DNA from: Escherichia coli | GTDB lineage: Bacteria; Pseudomonadota; Gammaproteobacteria; Enterobacterales; Enterobacteriaceae | Assembly (NCBI RefSeq): GCF_009931435.1 | Contig: NZ_CP043414.1 | Length of the DNA stretch: 64,000 bases | Strand: one strand, 5' to 3' | Shown: piece after piece, positions 5,413 to 54,542 of the stretch | Numbering within the stretch: the stretch's first letter is position 1 | Layout: each line of letters starts with the position of its first letter | The notes under the pieces: model-generated | Databases searched by the model: none | The model's input: only the letters and a program-made list of their open reading frames with translations | What the model was told of the DNA's origin: nothing | Position numbers and translations under genes: made by a program

Positions 5413-7137
5413 TCAGGTTCTCTCCGTTTTGCTTAACCACATTTCATCCATTCCACCCCCGCGAATCTGCATCGGGTAGACGTGCTCACTGCCATCGACG
5501 GTAACATCAACAAAGACCAGACGATTATTGCGCACCTGTTCCAGCGCCTCGCTAAGTTTGCTTTCCAGCTCTTGCGGATGAGAAATCTGGATCCCAACAT
5601 GCCCATAGGCTTCCGCCAGACGGACGAAATCGGGTAGCGATTGCATATAAGATTGTGAATGGCGGCCGGAATAGATCATGTCCTGCCACTGCTTCACCAT
5701 CCCCAGATAGCGATTATTAAGATTCACCACCAATACCGGCAACTCGTATTGCAAGGCGGTAGACAGTTCCTGAATGTTCATCTGAATACTGCCGTCACCA
5801 GTGACGCAAACCACGGTTTCTTCTGGCAGCGCCATTTTGACGCCCAGTGCCGCAGGTAAACCAAACCCCATCGTGCCGAGGCCACCAGAGTTAATCCAGC
5901 GACGCGGTTTGTCGAAAGGATAATAAAGTGCGGCGAACATCTGGTGCTGCCCGACATCAGACGTCACGTAAGCGTCCCCCTTCGTCAGTCGCCAAAGAGT
6001 CTCGATAACCGCCTGCGGTTTAATCTTTTCACTGTGAATATCGTATTTCAGGCACTGACGAGCACGCCACTGTTCAATCTGCTGCCACCAATCGCGGATC
6101 TCATCCAGCGGTTGATGGGCAGATTCTTGCGACAGGAGTTCAAGTATTTGTTCGAGGACCTGGCGGGCATCTCCAACAATCGGGATATCAGCAGTCACAG
6201 TTTTAGAAATGGAAGTAGGATCAATATCGATATGCAGAACCGTGGCATTTGGGCAGTACTTCGCCAGATTGTTCGTCGTTCGATCATCAAAACGTACCCC
6301 GACGGCAAAAATCACATCCGCGTTATGCATCGTCATATTGGCTTCGTAGGTACCGTGCATTCCCAACATGCCCAGTGCCTGACGATGCGTTGCTGGAAAC
6401 GCCCCCAGCCCCATTAATGAGGAAACAACGGGCAGATTCAACGCCTCCACCGTGTCTTTCAACTGCTGATGGCAGCCCGCCGTGATTGCCCCACCGCCTA
6501 CATACACAACCGGTTTTTTTGCCGCCACCAGCGTTTGCAGAGCGCGCTTAATTTGCCCTTTATGTCCGGAGGTCGTGGGATTATAAGACCGCATACTGAC
6601 CGACTCCGGCCAGACATAGGGTAATTTGTTCGCCGGATTTAGAATATCTTTCGGTAAATCAACGACCACGGGTCCAGGACGACCACTTGCCGCCAGCCAG
6701 AAAGCCTTTTTCAGCACCTGCGGAATGTCTTCCGTTTGCTTAACCAGAAAACTGTGCTTCACCACTGGGCGGGAAATTCCCACCATGTCGCACTCCTGAA
6801 AAGCATCGTAGCCTATCAACGAAGTTGCTACCTGCCCGGAAAGAACAACCAAGGGAATGGAGTCCATATAAGCGGTGGCGATGCCGGTAATCGCATTGGT
6901 CGCCCCTGGCCCCGATGTTACCAGCACGACGCCGACTTCCCCGGTCGCGCGTGCCAGACCATCGGCCATATGCACCGCCGCCTGCTCATGACGAACTAAT
7001 ACATGATCGATACCACCCACGGTATGCAATGCATCGTAAATATCAAGGACCGCGCCTCCGGGATAACCGAATACTTGTTTAACGCCCTGATCGATAAGCG
7101 ATCGGACGACCATCTCGGCTCCAGACAACATCTCCAT
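5413..7137 (-). CDS. ilvI: Acetolactate synthase III large subunit (ThDP-dependent)
   Basis: Frame 5413..7149 trimmed to conserved [14 protein letters not shown] start (574 aa). Confidence 0.9.
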
Positions 7138-7261
7138 GGCCTGCCTCACTGTTTAACGGAAAAATGTGTAAAACACATTAACCGCCCGATCTTGCTTAAG
7201 CAATTGGTAGCCAGAGACATAAATACGAGGTAATAAGAATAAACAGGAGGAAAGGTGAAAA

Positions 7262-7291
7262 GAAACGATAAAATCCTCCATTACGGAGGAT
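7262..7291 (-). terminator. Probable leuO terminator hairpin in the ilvIH upstream region
   Basis: Inverted repeat ATCCTCC-ATTAC-GGAGGAT with T-rich tract on the minus strand, about 165 nt after leuO stop. Confidence 0.4.
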
Positions 7292-7453
7292 TAAATTGAT
7301 AATAAATCGGCTAAATCCCACAACTTACAGCAATTTCTCTATTTTTTTAATTAATCCTAAAATAGTGAACTCACACATTCAGAATAAAATTCTATATTCA
7401 ATAAAAAATACAGAATAAATCAGTAATCAATATCTGACCTATTCTGCATTCAG

Positions 7454-8398
7454 TTAGCGTTTGCAAATTGAGACTAATTGCTCTTCCATCCACTGATGGC
7501 CTTTGTCGCGCCCGGCAGCTTCATGCCAGGAGAGATAACAGGTTCTGCTATTTTGTTTTAATGGCAGCGGTAATACCTGTAACTCTAAAGATTCAGCGAA
7601 CTCTTCAGCCAGCCAACGCGGCGCAATAGCGACCAGATGCGTTTGCGACACCACGCTCAGTACACTCATCATTGCCATGCCCTGATACGCGATACTGGCT
7701 TGTTTATCTACCGTGTCATACCACGGTTGACTAAATGACGCGAAACGATCGAGCGAAACTGCCGCATGTTGTTCGTTATAAACATCATGTTTCAGTAACG
7801 GGCCTTTAATTGTTGGATGATTTTTGCTGGCTACCAGCACCATTTCATCTTTAAATAATGGCACACTGGTAAATTCAGGACGATGGAAGTCTTCATAACT
7901 AATCACAAACTCCGTTTCCTGATAACGCAGTTGATGTTCAGTGTTCTGATTTAATGAAGACTTGAACATAACATGTATATTTGGCGCAGTTTGCTCAATG
8001 TGATTATAAATCTGCGAGGTCAGAATGCTGTCTAACGGACTGCAAACACAAAGATGAAATACACGTTCACTGCTCGCGGGTTCAAAACCTGAACCTGGCA
8101 ATTCATTTTGTACTAATTGCAATGCCTGACGAACTGAACCAAAAAGTTGAAATGCGCGAGCAGTCGGTTGAATGCCACGGCCATAACGAACAAAAAGCTC
8201 GTCATTAAACATCACCTTCAGGCGTGCAACCGCGTTACTGACCGCAGGTTGCGACATCCCCAGAACATGAGCGGCACGGGTGATGTTTTGCTCCTGCATC
8301 ACGGCATCGAAAACGGTTAATAAGTTGAGATCGACCATGCGTAGTTGTGGCTTGCTTAACTCCGCCGTCTCTGGTTGATCTGTTTGTACCTCTGGCAT
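7454..8398 (-). CDS. leuO: LysR-family transcriptional regulator LeuO
   Basis: Frame 7454..8482 trimmed to conserved MPEVQTD start (314 aa); HTH near N-terminus; AT-rich divergent region shared with the leu operon. Confidence 0.85.
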
Positions 8399-9056
8399 AC
8401 TTAACTCCACTGTCACACTTAACTCCCTTTCCCTTATTGGAATGCAGAGAAATAATCCTCGAGAATATGATTTATCATGCATATAAAATAAGAAAAAGGA
8501 AAATGAGAAAAATTAGGAAAACATAAAGATACGGGTTCTTATAAAAACAGAACCCATTGCCGAGTAAAGAGTCATTTACCGCAGCATAATAATCCATAAT
8601 GTTTTTGTTGCGAAAACAATCTAATCATAACTACCGCGAATACTCAATCATCCACAAAATGGATTAAATGTGCTTTTTTAATAATTAATTTATATGTTTA
8701 ATGCATTAATTCTTAACATTAATAGAACAATAATATTCACCAAATGAATATCAAAAAATTAGCAAAACATATAATTCAATACAAATCATCAAGATAGGTT
8801 TTGTAACGCGTGCATTTTATCCCCCTTTTCCTCGTTGATTAGATGCAAAAATTTATTCTGAAATATGTCAACCGATGAAAAGCGTCGGTGGTTAAGCAGA
8901 AATTAATATCGCTTGTTTTAACCACCGCAGCACAATTAGCTAATTTGACGAATGCAGAACTCACTCTGGCGGAACGTTTTTGTTGCGTCAGGGTTGACAT
9001 CCGTTTTTGTATCCAGTAACTCTAAAAGCATATCGTATTCATCTGGAGCTGATTTA

Positions 9057-9143
9057 ATGACTCACATCGTTCGCTTTATCGGTCTACTACTACTAAACGC
9101 ATCTTCTTTGCGCGGTAGACGAGTGAGCGGCATTCAGCATTAA
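9057..9143 (+). CDS. leuL: leu operon leader peptide (28 aa) with four consecutive Leu codons
   Basis: ATG at 9057; [31 protein letters not shown] x4 run; followed by attenuator hairpin. Confidence 0.9.
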
Positions 9144-9161
9144 GCCAGCACGCAGTCAAAC

Positions 9162-9193
9162 AAAAAACCCGCGCCATTGCGCGGGTTTTTTTA
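9162..9193 (+). terminator. leu operon attenuator (rho-independent terminator)
   Basis: AAAACCCGCGCCATTGCGCGGGTTTTTTT between leuL stop and leuA start. Confidence 0.85.
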
Positions 9194-9235
9194 TGCCCGA
9201 AGCGAGGCGCTCAAAAAGAGACAAGGACCCAAACC

Positions 9236-11898
<2,663 letters not shown>

Positions 11899-11900
11899 TC

Positions 11901-13917
<2,017 letters not shown>

Positions 13918-13947
13918 TTTGTACACCGTCCGGCACTCAATCGCCAA

Positions 13948-14177
13948 AAAGAAAAAAGCCAGCAGATAATCACTGCTGGCGTGGCGATTAACACCAATAC
14001 TCAGTCACACATGATGTCCGCAAATCAGTAGTCAGAATGACTCCCCTCCCACTGCATCAGCTCTTCAAGCATGGTTAATCGTTGTGGGACGCTTAACCAA
14101 CGCAACCAGCACAACGTCGCTGTCGCGGTAAAATAGTGCTGATAAAACTGACGTATGGGGCACCTCCTTGCTTCATC
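13948..14177 (-). ncRNA. sgrS: SgrS small RNA (glucose-phosphate stress), divergent from sgrR
   Basis: Minus-strand RNA beginning GAUGAAGCAAGG, conserved GUGUGACUGAGUAUUGGUGU seed region, terminator hairpin GCCAGCAG/CUGCUGGC plus U-run; position between sgrR and leuD. Confidence 0.75.
14025..14156 (-). pseudogene. sgrT: sgrT-like 43-codon frame inside SgrS whose initiation codon reads ATA instead of ATG
   Basis: Frame encodes (I)RQFYQHYFTATATLCWLRWLSVPQRLTMLEELMQWEGSHSDY; codon at 14154-14156 is ATA on the minus strand; an AGGAGG lies 7 nt upstream. Confidence 0.4.
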
Positions 14178-25619: not shown

Positions 25620-26063
25620 TCAGGCAGCAAGAAAAATTTCTGCCCCTATTCCCTCAATTAACAGTGCTTCTAATGAAGGGGCAATATACACCGCATCATC
25701 AAGATCTAAATTACCAAAACCGACGAGATATAAACCAAACCCCTCTTTTCCTTCGGCATAAAAAATCACTTTTCCGCCTTCATCATCGCCAATCGCCAGA
25801 GCGTGTGGAATATAATCCTGAATATGGTATGCGGCATTCATCTCACTACAGCCTGCGGCTCCCCAAATTCTGATATAAGACGTTGAATCCATCACTTTTA
25901 ATTCAACGTCTGCCATCAGAGTAATAAAGGTTAAATACTCATCAGGAATTGCAATGTGAAAATAATTTTTTATAAGTTGACCGAGTCCACTATAATCTAA
26001 TACGGGTTCCCATGACGCCAGCGTGAATTTTTCATGCAATTTAACAATAGGAAACTTACTCAT
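25620..26063 (-). CDS. Hypothetical protein, SUKH/SMI1-KNR4-like (candidate immunity protein); third gene of the islet operon
   Basis: 147-aa ORF; ATG with AAGGA SD; start overlaps upstream ORF stop (ATGA); motifs IPDEYLTFI, AIGDDEGGKVIFY, DDAVYIAPSLEALL resemble SUKH-family immunity proteins; AT-rich. Confidence 0.6.
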   Translation of the reverse strand: MSKFPIVKLHEKFTLASWEPVLDYSGLGQLIKNYFHIAIPDEYLTFITLMADVELKVMDSTSYIRIWGAAGCSEMNAAYHIQDYIPHALAIGDDEGGKVIFYAEGKEGFGLYLVGFGNLDLDDAVYIAPSLEALLIEGIGAEIFLAA

Positions 26064-26407
26064 TTCATCATCCTTTTCTTATACTTCTGGGGTAAAATAT
26101 CCGTTATAACGCCTTCACCTATAAATCCGGCTTCCCACAGCAGAAACTCACTGCCACAGCTGATCCACGGCATTACAAGTTCAGGATTTAAAAACGCCAT
26201 CTCAAGATTGTGTACCATTTCGCCAGGGTGAATCGTTTTTCCATAGCCGTCGATGTAAATCCGGCAGCCATAACCATATGAAGATAACTCATTAATCCCT
26301 TTAAAAAAGACAGGACAGCCGTAAAAACGGTTAGATGATAACAAAGGGCCACGATGCGATTTTTGCGTTGAAGAGTATAGTGTAATGGTAATCCGAACCT
26401 TTCTCAT
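26060..26407 (-). CDS. Hypothetical 115-aa protein; second gene of the islet operon
   Basis: ATG preceded by GGAGG SD 5 nt upstream; 12-nt spacer from upstream ORF; overlaps downstream ORF start; no recognisable family. Confidence 0.55.
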   Translation of the reverse strand: MRKVRITITLYSSTQKSHRGPLLSSNRFYGCPVFFKGINELSSYGYGCRIYIDGYGKTIHPGEMVHNLEMAFLNPELVMPWISCGSEFLLWEAGFIGEGVITDILPQKYKKRMMK

Positions 26408-26419
26408 CTTCCCTCCGAA

Positions 26420-26752
26420 TTAATTACGCTCTTCAATCAAATATGTCGTTTTATTAGTCCAGGCGATTATTTTATAGGGTCTGTTAATAATACCTTTCTG
26501 CGTATAATCAGCCATAATTTCTGATGGATACCAACCATAACCAAAGCAAAATAAAGCACCTACATTAATAAGCTCACTAATTACACTTAGTTTCTCATTT
26601 TCATTACTGGTATTTTTGCTAAATCGATCATTGTCGGCAGAAAAACCCAACCGTTGCATTTTTTCAACGTTATCATATCCGGTCACTACCGTTTCAATGA
26701 AATTATCACTTATGCTAACCACTATAATACAATCGCTCGGCAGTGTGTTCAT
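26420..26752 (-). CDS. Hypothetical 110-aa protein; first gene of the islet operon
   Basis: ATG with AAGGA/AGGGG SD; AT-rich; no recognisable family. Confidence 0.55.
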   Translation of the reverse strand: MNTLPSDCIIVVSISDNFIETVVTGYDNVEKMQRLGFSADNDRFSKNTSNENEKLSVISELINVGALFCFGYGWYPSEIMADYTQKGIINRPYKIIAWTNKTTYLIEERN

Positions 26753-45575: not shown

Positions 45576-46098
45576 GATATGCCTCCTGCCATTCCAGCAG
45601 ACGTTGCTTATAATGACGCGCCTGCCCTTCGAGGGTTTCGTCGTCACAAATAAAGGTGCAGTGCATAGCAAACGGAGGCAGCCAGTTCAGCCCGCAGTAG
45701 ATTGCCGTCGCCTGTAGCGGCTGCGACAGCACATCAAAGCCCGGATGCGCGCCAATCTCAAAATGACTTTCCCCGCCGCCGGTCGTCACCGCCCACAGCA
45801 AATGTTTACCATGCAGTGCCGTGCCGCCGTGACCGTAAGCCCAGCCGTGCGAGAAGACTTTATCGATCCAAAGTTTAAGGAGCGGAGGAATGCTGTACCA
45901 CTGCATCGGGTGCTGCCAGACGATCAGGTCGGCGCGAGACAACGCCTCCTGCTCGGCAGCAATATCGATATTGAAGTCAGGATAGAGTTGATAAAGAGAG
46001 CGAACTTCGACGCCTTCCAGCGTCCTTGCGTGTTCAAGCATCCGTTTATTCGCATGAGAATGATGCGGATACGGATGCGCATAAATTATGAGGATCAT
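45568..46098 (-). CDS. kefF: KefC ancillary protein / quinone oxidoreductase KefF
   Basis: 176-aa ORF; flavodoxin-like. Confidence 0.9.
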
Positions 46099-46201
46099 AG
46101 TTAACTCGCGTGTTTACGCCTTTGTTTTCCCACAAAGTGTAGTCATATATTCACGCGGCTTATAGTCAATAATATTGATTCAGAAAAAGCAGAAATCTGA
46201 A

Positions 46202-46435
46202 TCAGTTGTCCAACTCACTCATATCTTTAACCTGATCGCGGTTGATCTGTTCAGTTTGCCCGGTTTGCGCATTTTTGTAAGAAACCAGCCCGGTATCGTC
46301 ATCAACCTGCGGTTTACCATCGGTGACTATCGTTTGGCCATCGGTTGTTCTTACCGCCTGGTTTGAGGAACAGCCAGCCACAGTGAACATTACCGCCGCG
46401 GCGAAGATTGATGTGATCAATACTTTATGTTGCAT
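46202..46435 (-). CDS. Small lipoprotein, YgdI/YgdR (DUF903) family
   Basis: 77-aa ORF; lipobox VAGC; C-terminal region DG.TIV.DGKPQ.D.DTG..SYK...G....INR..VK.M.ELD parallels YgdI; occupies the position where K-12 has caiF..yaaU. Confidence 0.7.
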   Translation of the reverse strand: MQHKVLITSIFAAAVMFTVAGCSSNQAVRTTDGQTIVTDGKPQVDDDTGLVSYKNAQTGQTEQINRDQVKDMSELDN

Positions 46436-46524
46436 CGTCTTTTCCTCTGCTTTGCTGTAGTAAGCATTCAGTTTAGGTTAACTGCCTGAAAGCAAGTGAA
46501 AAAACAGAAGATTCTGAGGCGAGT

Positions 46525-46554
46525 TGCGCCCGGCAACAGCAATGTTACCGGGCG
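46525..46554 (-). terminator. Possible carB terminator hairpin
   Basis: GCGCCCGG-loop-CCGGGCGC stem just after carB stop; U-tract is weak or distal. Confidence 0.4.
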
Positions 46555-46562
46555 CGGAGGGG

Positions 46563-49500
46563 TTACTTCTTAATCTGCGCGTGCATTTCCTGCACCGAAA
46601 TTACTTTTTCAGTCGCATCGGCATTCAGCGCCATCGCGGTAGCGAAACCACCGTTCAGGGTGGTGTCATAGTGCACTTTATATTGCAGCGCACTGCGACG
46701 AATCACGCGGGAGTCCTCAATCGCACGACGGCCTGAGGTGGTGTTGATGATGTAGGTATATTCGCCATTCTTGATACGGTCCTGAATGTGCGGACGACCT
46801 TCATGCACCTTGTTCACCAGACGCGGGTTAATACCTGCTTCGCCCAGCACAATCGCTGTGCCGTGGGTCGCATCCAGCTCGAAGCCCTGTTTCAGCAGTT
46901 TTGCCGCCAGGTCAACCACGCGTTCTTTATCGCCTTCACGCACGGAGAGCAACGCACGACCGTGTTTCTTCATCGTGGAGTTACTGCCCAGCTGCGCTTT
47001 GGCAAACGCTTCAGCGAAGGTGCGGCCCACGCCCATCACTTCCCCGGTAGAGCGCATTTCTGGCCCTAACAGCGGGTCAACGCCGGGGAATTTGTTGAAC
47101 GGCAGCACCACTTCTTTCACCGAGTAATATGGCGGGATAACTTCTTTAGTTACGCCCTGCTCAGCCAGCGATTTGCCAGCCATCACACGCGCCGCTACTT
47201 TCGCCAGCGGTACGCCGGTGGCTTTGGAGACGAACGGAACGGTACGCGCCGCACGCGGGTTAACTTCAATCAGGTAGACTTCGTTGTTTTTCACCGCAAA
47301 CTGCACGTTCATCAGTCCGCGCACCTGCAATTCGAAGGCCAGTTTCTGCACCTGTTGGCGCATCACATCCTGAATTTCCTGACTTAAAGTGTAGGCTGGC
47401 AGAGAACATGCGGAGTCACCGGAGTGCACGCCCGCCTGCTCAATATGCTCCATGATGCCGCCAATCAGCACCATTTCACCGTCGCAGATGGCGTCCACAT
47501 CCACTTCTACCGCGTCATCGAGGAAGTGGTCCAGCAATACTGGTGCATCGTTAGACACGCTCACCGCCGTCTGGAAGTAGCGACGCAGGTCAGCTTCGTC
47601 ATAGACGATTTCCATCGCCCGACCGCCGAGAACGTAAGACGGACGCACCACCAGCGGGTAACCAATCTCTTTTGCCTTCTCAACCGCCATTTCAATAGCG
47701 GTAACGGTGGCGTTCGCCGGTTGTTTCAGTTTCAGACGGTCAACCGCATGCTGGAAGCGTTCACGGTCTTCCGCACGGTCGATAGCATCCGGGCTGGTGC
47801 CGATAACCGGTACGCCAGCGGCTTCCAGTGCGCGCGCCAGTTTCAGCGGGGTCTGACCGCCGTACTGAACGATAACGCCTTTCGGCTTCTCAATACGCAC
47901 GATTTCCAGCACATCTTCCAGAGTTACCGGCTCGAAGTAGAGGCGATCGGAAGTGTCGTAGTCAGTGGAGACGGTTTCCGGGTTACAGTTAACCATAATG
48001 GTTTCGTAACCGTCTTCACGTAGCGCCAGCGAGGCGTGTACACAGCAGTAGTCGAATTCAATACCCTGACCGATACGGTTCGGGCCGCCGCCGAGCACCA
48101 TGATTTTGTCACGGTCAGATGGGTTGGATTCGCACTCTTCTTCATAGGTGGAGTACATATACGCGGTGTCGGTGGCAAATTCTGCCGCACAGGTATCCAC
48201 ACGTTTGTAGACCGGGTGCAGGTCATACTGGTCGCGTAGCTTGCGGATTTCCGCTTCGCGCACGCCCGCCAGTTTAGCCAGACGCGCATCGGCAAAGCCT
48301 TTGCGTTTCAACTGGCGCAGGAAGTCAGCGTTCAGGCCAGTGATGCCCACTTCCGCCACTTTCTCTTCCAGACGCACCAGTTCTTCAATTTGTACCAGGA
48401 ACCAGCGGTCAATGTTGGTCAGGTTAAAGACGCCGTCTACAGACAGGCCCGCACGGAAAGCATCGGCGATGTACCAGATACGATCTGCGCCTGCGTCTTT
48501 CAGCTCGCGGCGAATTTTGGTCAGCGCTTCCGGGTCGTCCAGGCTGACTTTCGGGTCAAAACCAGTCGCACCGACTTCCAGGCCGCGCAGGGCTTTTTGC
48601 AGGGATTCCTGCTGCGTGCGACCAATCGCCATCACTTCGCCGACGGATTTCATCTGAGTGGTCAGACGATCGTTAGCACCGGCGAATTTCTCGAAGTTGA
48701 AGCGAGGAATTTTGGTCACCACGTAGTCGATGGACGGTTCGAAGGAGGCCGGAGTACGCCCGCCAGTGATGTCGTTCATCAGTTCATCGAGGGTGTAACC
48801 AACCGCCAGTTTCGCCGCCACTTTGGCAATCGGGAAACCGGTGGCTTTCGACGCCAGCGCCGAAGAACGGGACACTCGCGGGTTCATTTCGATAACAATC
48901 AGGCGACCATTTTTCGGGTTCACCGCAAACTGGACGTTGGAACCACCGGTTTCAACGCCGATTTCACGCAGCACCGCCATCGAGGCGTTACGCATGATTT
49001 GATATTCTTTGTCGGTCAGCGTTTGGGCTGGCGCGACAGTGATGGAGTCACCGGTATGGATGCCCATCGCATCGAAGTTTTCGATAGAGCAGACGATGAT
49101 GCAGTTGTCGTTTTTATCACGCACCACTTCCATCTCGTACTCTTTCCAGCCGATCAGCGACTCATCAATCAGCAACTCTTTGGTCGGAGAGAGATCCAGA
49201 CCGCGGGCGCAAATTTCTTCAAACTCTTCGCGGTTATAAGCGATACCGCCACCGCTACCGCCCATAGTAAAGGATGGGCGAATAATGCACGGGAAGCCCA
49301 CATCAGCGGCAACTGCCAGCGCTTCTTCCATGGTGTGCGCGATACCGGAACGCGCAGTTTCCAGACCGATTTTCTTCATCGCCACGTCGAAACGGCGGCG
49401 GTCTTCGGCTTTATCAATCGCATCGGCGGTGGCACCAATCATGGTGACGCCGAACTCTTCCAGCACGCCCTGACGCTCCAGCTCCAGCGCACAGTTCAGC

Positions 49501-49784
49501 GCTGTCTGACCGCCCATCGTTGGCAGCACCGCGTCCGGACGCTCTTTTTCAATAATCTTGCGTACCACTTCCCAGTGAATCGGCTCGATGTAGGTCGCAT
49601 CAGCCATTTCCGGGTCGGTCATGATGGTCGCTGGGTTGGAGTTCACCAGAATGACGCGGTAACCCTCTTCGCGCAGGGCTTTACATGCTTGCGCGCCAGA
49701 GTAGTCAAACTCACACGCCTGACCGATAACAATCGGGCCCGCACCCAGAATCAGGATACTTTTTATATCTGTACGTTTTGGCAT
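46563..49784 (-). CDS. carB: Carbamoyl-phosphate synthase large subunit
   Basis: 1073-aa ORF with duplicated ATP-grasp halves. Confidence 0.95.
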
Positions 49785-53333: not shown

Positions 53334-54542
53334 TTACTTGCTCATGGCTTTGAACTCATCGCGGCTGATACAGATATCCGAAATATCTTTATTCGTCACC
53401 AGACGCGGGCTAAGTTTATCGCCTTCAACAAACGGTACTAGCGGGCAAAATTCCCCTGGAGACGCTTTATCTTCCTGCCACTGAATTTCAATGGATTCCG
53501 GCTTCATACCTGGTTTCTGTGACTGAATGACTGTGCGGATATCCGTGGTTAACTGAAATGGCTCACACCCCTTCACATCAGTAAAAGTCGGCGTCAGATG
53601 ACCATTCTTACGTTCCTGCAGATAAAAAATGCGGCCATCGTGATAGGAAGGAATTACGTAGCAGGTATACATTTTACCTTTGCTTAGCACGGGCTGAAGA
53701 TAACTTGAACCTCTCTCGATCAATTCAACCTCTTTCCCCTTCCAGCGATAAACGTCAACCCCGTGACTACAGCAGCTTCCTCGCCAATGGCTGACGATCT
53801 GCTTATATTCTGCATCTGGCTCCGGCGAGGTGATTTCCTGATAAGACGCAGGCGCATCAACAAAACGTTGTGTTGAGGGATCGTAAAGCCAGGTTTGTTC
53901 GGGGATATTGGGTCCAGCGGGTAACTCTTGCGGAATGGAAAGATCCGGATAACCATCAAAATTAACATCCTTCCATTGAGGCGTAAAAATGCTACAAGTG
54001 CCGATAGAAGCAGTATATAAGGTCTGTATCGGTTTCCCATCACGATATAATTTTATTGCTGAAATGACCGGAACATTATTACAGTCGATCGCTTTGGAAG
54101 GGTCGTAATCGTCATTCACTTCCGCCACCAGCACCAGATCAATGCCCGGATCGTTTTTGGGTTTGTTATAGTTAAGCGCAATGGGGAAATGGTGTTTTTT
54201 ATCGGCTGAAGTCCATACACCTTTTATCTCAATCGGTGAAACTTCAGCATCCCATTGACCAGAAAGTGTCTGTGCGCGCTCCTCAAGAAGCAACCGCTTA
54301 ACCTGGAGAGATCCACGCAGAATTAATCGCATTTTTCTCTGATTGCAGGGTTCATAGCAATAGCTACCATGAAGGTCGTTGTTAATCCGCGTGATATCGA
54401 CACTTACCTGCTTACCCGCAATCGTCCCGGAATAATTTCGATCCCAGAACGGAAATTCAAGCTGCGAAGCGCCATTGGCCGCTCCCAAACAAAATACAAA
54501 AGCCAAAAATCCCGCCAATCCATAAGCTATCTTGCTCATCAT
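53334..54542 (-). CDS. Hypothetical secreted Cys-rich protein (402 aa) inserted between ispH and rihC
   Basis: ATG with GGAGG SD; N-terminal signal peptide [25 protein letters not shown]; at least 10 Cys; FDGYPDL motif; no family recognised; absent at this position in K-12. Confidence 0.65.

Follow-up and report, generated by a model that had tools for sequence, protein, structure and literature searches.

A short carB–kefF interval with a DUF903 lipoprotein gene in place of the cai/fix/yaaU block: a probable ancestral-type haplotype in Escherichia coli

In E. coli K-12 the genes carB and kefF are separated by the caiF-caiTABCDE-fixABCX-yaaU block. The locus described here raises the question of how a strain of E. 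coli came to carry one small lipoprotein gene at that site. The first-pass annotation of this DNA offered two answers, the state before acquisition of the cai/fix genes or a clean deletion. The analysis was carried out on a window of 64,000 nucleotides (contig NZ_CP043414.1 of assembly GCF_009931435.1), which is reversed relative to K-12, colinear with approximately 20.5–92.8 kb of that chromosome, and 95.2–96.8% identical to it over its whole length. Our reading, to which a probability of roughly three in four is given, is that the interval represents a short, ancestral-type haplotype of the Enterobacteriaceae in which the cai/fix genes were never inserted, rather than one from which they were deleted.

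The features of the junction are collected in Table 1. The gap between carB and kefF measures 464 bp (46099–46562), which makes exact the earlier estimate of less than 0.5 kb, and contains a single credible gene. The carA gene is also found on the minus strand, and kefC and kefF lie downstream of carB/carA. Homology to K-12 was mapped using blastn. It stops at position 46570, within the final codons of carB, and restarts at 46201, the base that follows the stop codon of the lipoprotein gene. The site and its flanking sequences are the same in the two chromosomes, and the content differs: 368 bp with one gene in the window (46202–46569) stand for 13.1 kb with 12 genes, caiF to yaaU, in K-12 (34032–47142). 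The K-12 block is bounded by the carB stop codon and by the hairpin upstream of kefF. No homologues of Cai, Fix, or YaaU were detected in the 64-kb window when all 12 K-12 proteins were used as tblastn queries (E ≤ 1e-3). The absence of the block from its canonical site was thus confirmed by both searches; its identity had been given correctly, and the K-12 coordinates replace the original figure of about 12 kb. The 13-kb block was also searched for an integrase, a tRNA target, flanking direct repeats, and IS elements, and it does not resemble a classical genomic island: the K-12 annotation contains only cai, fix, and yaaU genes, and the boundaries are without repeats.

Two small differences were observed in CarB itself. 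The C-terminus encoded in the window (46563–46575) is ...QIKK, as in Citrobacter, and that of K-12 is ...QIK. At codons ~549–560 the K-12 protein presumably reads EEECEANPSTDREK; the window protein is without one residue there, and its length stays at 1073 amino acids.

Table 1. Positions, strands, and supporting evidence for the features at the carB–kefF junction (window coordinates)
Feature	Position	Strand	Evidence
carB (carbamoyl-phosphate synthase large subunit)	46563–49784	−	ORF list; Pfam CPSase domains; blastn against K-12
carB terminator-like hairpin, GCGCCCGGTAAC-loop-GTTGCCGGGCGC, "empty-site" type	46526–46555	−	RNA fold −28 kcal/mol, z = −6.1
Conserved element upstream of the lipoprotein gene, TCAGAATCTTCTGTTTTTTCAC ... 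CAGTTAACCTAAACT, putative promoter region	46470–46517	−	Alignment of 20 upstream regions from 12 or more genera
77-aa DUF903/YgdI-YgdR-family lipoprotein gene	46202–46435	−	Pfam and NCBIfam, above cutoffs
Hairpin over the lipoprotein stop codon, UGAUUCAGA-loop-UCUGAAUCA	46176–46204	−	RNA fold −10.6 kcal/mol, z = −3.8; blastn
kefF (quinone oxidoreductase, KefC regulator)	45568–46098	−	Pfam Flavodoxin_2, E = 5.9e-44; RefSeq annotation of the colinear locus
kefC	43713–45575	−	Overlapped by kefF

The product of the gene within the interval was identified using profile models. A score of 61.3 bits (E = 8.5e-17, cutoff 27) was obtained with Pfam PF06004 (DUF903), and 101.9 bits (cutoff 42) with NCBIfam NF033216, "YgdI/YgdR family lipoprotein", for which 71 of the 71 profile positions are covered. 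In the translation the signal peptide occupies residues 1–21 and reads MQHKVLITSIFAAAVMFTVAG, that is MQHK-VLITSIFAAAVMFT-VAG, followed by Cys22 (codon 46370–46372) and serine at +2. The lipobox VAGC at the end of the signal peptide conforms to the pattern [LVI][ASTVI][GAS]C and is kept in all of the orthologues aligned. The description of this gene in the first-pass annotation, as a 77-aa DUF903/YgdI-like lipoprotein with a canonical lipobox, is borne out by these matches. A Shine–Dalgarno-like AGAGGA is located ahead of the gene at 46443–46448. Under the Lol sorting rule, serine at +2 directs a lipoprotein to the outer membrane. Because of the lipobox and this serine, the protein should leave the cytoplasm by the Sec pathway, acquire its lipid at Cys22, and be sorted to the outer membrane. 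Purifying selection acts on the gene: dN/dS is approximately 0.14 against the allele of E. coli GF4-3 and approximately 0.04 against Citrobacter.

The YgdI and YgdR proteins of E. coli belong to the same family by the profile models, above the cutoffs. Five solved DUF903 structures are related to the window protein by sequence, of which 5CAI (E = 4.5e-18) is the best; 2RA2 (E = 2.7e-14), 3BDU, and 2JN0/3FIF are the others. These proteins share with it a length of about 75 residues, the lipobox, and a conserved DGKP..DDDTG core. The window protein is a third YgdI/YgdR paralogue, located at another chromosomal site and missing from nearly all E. coli; at the DNA level its gene resembles ygdR over only ~60 bp. 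No function was found reported for any family member in the literature on DUF903 and YgdI/YgdR. For YgdI, PMC5437024 describes a small lipoprotein that depends on RpoS and has an Sm-like fold, and a cpxRA mutant of Citrobacter rodentium shows lowered YgdI expression (PMC6153362). On the strength of these two reports and by analogy, our best guess for the window protein is a role as an accessory protein of stationary phase or envelope stress.

The short junction was found in 2 of 5426 complete E. coli genomes, 2020CK-00188 (98.6% identity) and GF4-3 (94.7%), in both of which RefSeq labels the gene as a YgdI/YgdR family lipoprotein. A search with the 358-bp cassette at blastn sensitivity returned the same two genomes, all others matching only through ~60 bp of the paralogue ygdR. 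The cassette and the cai/fix block occur together in none of the 5426. An intact caiD–caiT segment is present in 5382 of them, and in a handful the search gave no match, or one of less than 90% identity. The exact lipoprotein is on record for 245 contigs under the name "MULTISPECIES ... [Escherichia]". The same junction and neighbours were also obtained from three independent assemblies, L005 and L006 (99.25% and 98.4% identical to the window over 20 kb) and that of E. fergusonii CP057504.1 (L007). The short carB–kefF locus is genuine but rare.

The distribution of the gene outside E. coli was determined with a scan of one genome per species, in which 80 loci were returned and their neighbours typed by tblastn. 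An adjacent and co-oriented carB-lpp-kefF order (lpp denotes the lipoprotein gene) is found in Enterobacter, Lelliottia, Kosakonia, Cedecea, Buttiauxella, Trabulsiella, Huaxiibacter, Dryocola, and Franconibacter; in some species of this short type, lpp and kefF are set 3–5 kb apart by other genes. The order fixABCX-yaaU-lpp-kefF appears in Pseudocitrobacter and at least seven species of Citrobacter, and the longer Citrobacter loci give the full order carB-caiF-caiEDCBAT-fixABCX-yaaU-lpp-kefF. A comparison of this junction among relatives had been proposed earlier; in Salmonella enterica it revealed both the block and the lipoprotein gene, the order being that of Citrobacter up to lpp, followed by a few extra genes that include a sulfatase and then by kefF. 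The Salmonella protein is Q7CR89_SALTY, an "outer membrane lipoprotein" encoded downstream of yaaU, and it is present in S. bongori as well. No Escherichia species representative in the one-genome-per-species collection carries the gene.

The positional orthologues (Q7CR89_SALTY and the DUF903 gene next to kefF in Citrobacter and Enterobacter) are 74–88% identical to the window protein in amino acid sequence and agree with it in neighbourhood, orientation, and conserved upstream element. In Salmonella and Citrobacter, unlike the window, the cai/fix/yaaU block coexists upstream of lpp, and Salmonella differs further by the genes inserted before kefF. The gene order across genera, with short-type loci on the one hand and Citrobacter and Salmonella loci with both elements on the other, indicates that the lipoprotein gene would be the ancestral occupant of the site, and that typical E. 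coli would have kept the block and lost the gene. That loss would start directly behind the yaaU stop codon and reach as far as that of the lipoprotein gene. The first-pass annotation had not recognised this ancestral place of the gene or its loss from typical E. coli.

A different arrangement was observed in Trabulsiella odontotermitis strain 01, where a cai cluster (caiF, caiD, caiC, caiB, and caiA) occupies positions 6001–11556 of locus L050, downstream of lpp. Its CaiF is 71% identical to that of K-12. In Citrobacter and E. coli the cluster lies upstream, and the empty carB-lpp-kefF order is found in T. guamensis and in another strain of T. odontotermitis. The position of this cluster suggests an independent acquisition at the same hotspot.

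The noncoding elements of the interval separate the two kinds of locus. The 53 bp that follow the carB stop codon in the window hold the carB hairpin of Table 1. When aligned, the carB terminators of Lelliottia and Enterobacter asburiae have a hairpin at the same position with the same stem core, GCCCGGYAA / TTGCCGGGC; the comparison is based on ~20 bp of similar stem sequence within a spacer that evolves fast. The stem is preserved in GF4-3 by compensating changes. No match to the hairpin or the 53 bp was found at the boundaries or inside the block of K-12, Citrobacter, or Salmonella, where the only matches are due to chance and no longer than 13 bases. These cai-bearing loci have another post-carB terminator in common, ACGGTTC...GAACCGTTTTTTT. 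The window thus combines the gene order of more than 25 species representatives with a GCCCGG-type hairpin and the conserved element upstream of lpp, the features that we used to recognise an empty site.

The cai/fix/yaaU block of Citrobacter and Salmonella stops immediately upstream of the conserved element. This element probably holds the promoter of the lipoprotein gene. Since a promoter and terminator scan of 45950–46700 returned no consensus sites, including none for sigma-70, the assignment is drawn from conservation across genera. An argument from colinearity between the window and Enterobacter over the point where the block is inserted in Citrobacter was dropped after a wider alignment, in which Citrobacter keeps the same element. 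The second hairpin, over the lipoprotein stop codon, is also present in K-12, where it follows the yaaU stop codon and where homology to the window restarts within it. Segment identities place a recombination breakpoint of E. fergusonii CP057504.1 at the same hairpin.

The following history would account for these data. The short haplotype consists of the carB terminator-like hairpin, the conserved upstream element, the DUF903 lipoprotein gene, and the second hairpin, followed by kefF. In a first step, the 13-kb caiF-caiTABCDE-fixABCX-yaaU block would have entered the site between the stop codon of carB and the promoter of the lipoprotein gene, a state that would still be visible in Citrobacter, Pseudocitrobacter, and Salmonella. 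In a second step, the lipoprotein gene would have been lost in the lineage that leads to typical E. coli. Within Escherichia the short and long haplotypes exclude each other at this single site. The short haplotype is rare and old, and homologous recombination within carB and kefF moves it among E. coli of clade I, E. coli sensu stricto, and E. fergusonii. The layout of the interval, its breakpoints, its distribution, the purifying selection on the gene, and the sharing and divergence of alleles are observed; we infer the order of insertion and loss, the promoter and terminator functions, and the lipidation and outer-membrane sorting of the protein.

The alternative that survives best, although we regard it as unlikely, is a clean deletion in which a single event removed the 13 kb that separate the carB stop codon from the lipoprotein promoter in a Citrobacter-like carB-cai/fix/yaaU-lpp-kefF locus. 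The nearest genera, Citrobacter and Salmonella, do have block and gene together, the nearest lipoprotein orthologues outside Escherichia are those of Citrobacter, the block is present in close relatives of the window, and loss of the block does occur in E. coli. A simple deletion from a locus with both elements, however, cannot yield the window sequence, because the 53 bp past the carB stop codon have no counterpart in K-12, Citrobacter, or Salmonella, yet resemble the carB terminators of empty sites. The precursor that it requires is found in 0 of the 5426 E. coli genomes.

The deletions known from E. coli are also of another kind. Seven further complete genomes are without caiF–yaaU and have IS1 between carB and kefF, among them Ec1120 and ET650. 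All seven retain IS1, and their endpoints vary, with a yaaU remnant in one and a truncated kefF in another. The differing endpoints point to at least two or three independent IS1-mediated deletions. Like the window, these loci have no cai/fix genes between carB and kefF; unlike it, they carry an IS1 scar and no lipoprotein gene. They are clearly secondary deletions of the long haplotype.

Two further points weigh against an allele that never carried the block. Because the closest orthologues outside Escherichia (88% amino acid identity) are in Citrobacter, which bears the block and the gene, an ancestor with both may have been followed by reciprocal losses. An empty-type allele dating from before the split of Escherichia, Salmonella, and Citrobacter would need either a very long polymorphism or re-import from an unsampled donor. 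Of the two origins named in the first-pass annotation, pre-insertion gene order is supported by many genera, and the carB hairpin of the empty-site type argues against simple deletion.

The relatives of the window limit how far the pre-insertion reading can be taken. The nearest complete genomes form a group of about 10 with 97.2–99.0% identity, which includes 2013C-4282, listed as a cryptic clade I strain (PMC10100065). Ordinary E. coli reach at most 97.4% (in the 28–40 kb segment) and at most 96.5% on the carB side. The closest relatives of the window are cryptic clade I E. coli, a placement drawn from nearest-neighbour identity to known clade I genomes, and E. fergusonii. None of the clade I PCR primers published in PMC10100065 matches the window, a result that does not bear on the placement. 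All members of the nearest group except 2020CK-00188 have the cai/fix genes with K-12-type breakpoints. Most genomes with the exact KefF protein of the window have the order fixABCX-yaaU-kefF and are apparently E. fergusonii chromosomes. A state before cai/fix acquisition is therefore matched by the gene order and not by the lineage, since close relatives mostly carry the block with K-12 breakpoints.

The age of the haplotype within Escherichia was assessed from its two alleles. The flanks of GF4-3, an E. coli sensu stricto strain, are 97–99% identical to K-12 and stay K-12-like up to both breakpoints (98.5% in the nearest complete 200-bp bin on the carB side; on the kefF side, 97.0% in the first bin); its cassette and lpp are 94% identical to those of the window. 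A dS of 0.204 was obtained between GF4-3 and the window for lpp, and the same value for kefF, which indicates that in at least two lineages of Escherichia the short haplotype has diverged at the same pace as its flanking sequence. The carB–lpp spacer and lpp (361 bp) are identical in the window, 2020CK-00188, L005, and L006 and are one base off in E. fergusonii CP057504.1, and the flanks of this shared cassette differ by up to ~3%. The lpp–kefF spacer of CP057504.1 is 100% of the E. fergusonii type. The shared cassette next to an E. fergusonii spacer shows exchange between lineages with one breakpoint at the hairpin after lpp. With the GF4-3 allele as diverged as kefF and the cassette shared with E. 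fergusonii, the haplotype is both old in Escherichia and exchanged by recombination. The locus is best described, from these comparisons, as a rare, old, and recombining alternative haplotype, and as neither a pre-cai/fix lineage nor a private deletion.

CP057504.1 is assigned to E. fergusonii by the names given to its DapB and CitG proteins. Its carA–surA segment is 95–99% like E. coli and clade I, and dapB and lptD are 88–89%. These values suggest an interspecies recombination tract.

A recent horizontal replacement, in which the cai/fix genes were exchanged for a short segment from outside Escherichia through homologous recombination in carB and kefF, is very improbable. The movement of a cassette between Escherichia lineages, identical in clade-I-like E. 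coli and one base off in E. fergusonii, would be in keeping with such an event, as would the occurrence of the empty-site hairpin type in other genera. The best non-Escherichia match of the cassette, however, is 80–82% in nucleotides and 88% in amino acids, no better than that of the flanking kefF. Nucleotide identities to Citrobacter are 80–82% for the lipoprotein gene, 80–82% for kefF, and 82–83.5% for the 5' part of kefC; because these values are equal, no close foreign donor is visible. The flanks are uniformly Escherichia-like, at about 95–97% to K-12 over the whole window, and a second allele, 6% diverged, sits in flanks of E. coli sensu stricto with the same dS as kefF. An assembly artefact, with ~13 kb collapsed or dropped at the junction, had been raised at the outset and can be dismissed: the identical junction is present in two complete RefSeq chromosomes and several independent assemblies, the gap is filled by an intact gene under selective constraint, and the carB-lpp-kefF arrangement is standard in many genera.

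The short, ancestral-type haplotype remains our preferred reading. An extension of it, held at long odds, is that the cassette and the cai/fix/yaaU block are two ancient and exclusive haplotypes, kept by niche-dependent selection as a long-lived polymorphism in E. coli sensu stricto, cryptic clade I, and E. fergusonii, and shuttled between these lineages by recombination at the carB stop codon and at the hairpin after lpp. If so, the carnitine-rich animal gut would be set against other habitats, and the locus would serve as an ecological marker.

Several other sites in the window differ from K-12. A ccdB/ccdA toxin–antitoxin pair is located between apaH and folA (42405–42955, minus strand), where K-12 has none; at the same spot, a DUF4291 gene, a hypothetical gene, and a truncated ccdA are found in GF4-3 and E. 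fergusonii CP057504.1. Because the contents differ among the window, these two genomes, and K-12, apaH–folA is another variable cassette site. Between ispH and rihC, a 1.3-kb insertion relative to K-12 carries a 402-aa ORF with a signal-peptide-like N-terminus (53334–54542, minus strand). This ORF gave no Pfam match in the scan, and its exact sequence is missing from the protein collection; the counterpart in L005 has the precomputed label DUF8339. Three small ORFs of 147, 115, and 110 aa are located between araD and polB (25620–26752, minus strand) and are missing in K-12. The 147-aa ORF has a weak, sub-threshold match to SMI1/KNR4 (SUKH-1), and the group may be an orphan immunity-protein cluster. 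The sugar exporter gene setA (K-12 77593–78853) is missing at 13912–13951, where ~40 bp are found instead between sgrS and leuD. Beyond rpsT, where K-12 has IS1A, a 490-aa ORF is followed by a fimbrial subunit gene (PF00419) at 61494–63743 on the plus strand. The 490-aa ORF is named [quoted passage not shown] and occurs in 11 contigs only; neither gene has a megablast match in K-12.

Identical junctions are already annotated in RefSeq, and gene family, gene order, and this kind of polymorphism were known before. No paper describing the carB–kefF polymorphism was found in the literature, including searches for carnitine with the cryptic clade. The value of the observation is descriptive, as one of ordinary gene-content variation with no new system or mechanism. 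[quoted passage not shown] Because CaiT, CaiABCDE, CaiF, and FixABCX are missing from the canonical locus, the strain is predicted to be incapable of converting carnitine or crotonobetaine to gamma-butyrobetaine and to be without the cai-dependent benefit in anaerobic growth. The same loss of carnitine-to-gamma-butyrobetaine conversion is expected for the rare class of Escherichia that carries this haplotype, which makes up ~0.04% of the complete E. coli genomes. With the lipoprotein gene as the original occupant, the K-12-based view of the cai/fix genes as the default content of this site would be corrected, and it is typical E. coli that would represent the derived state.
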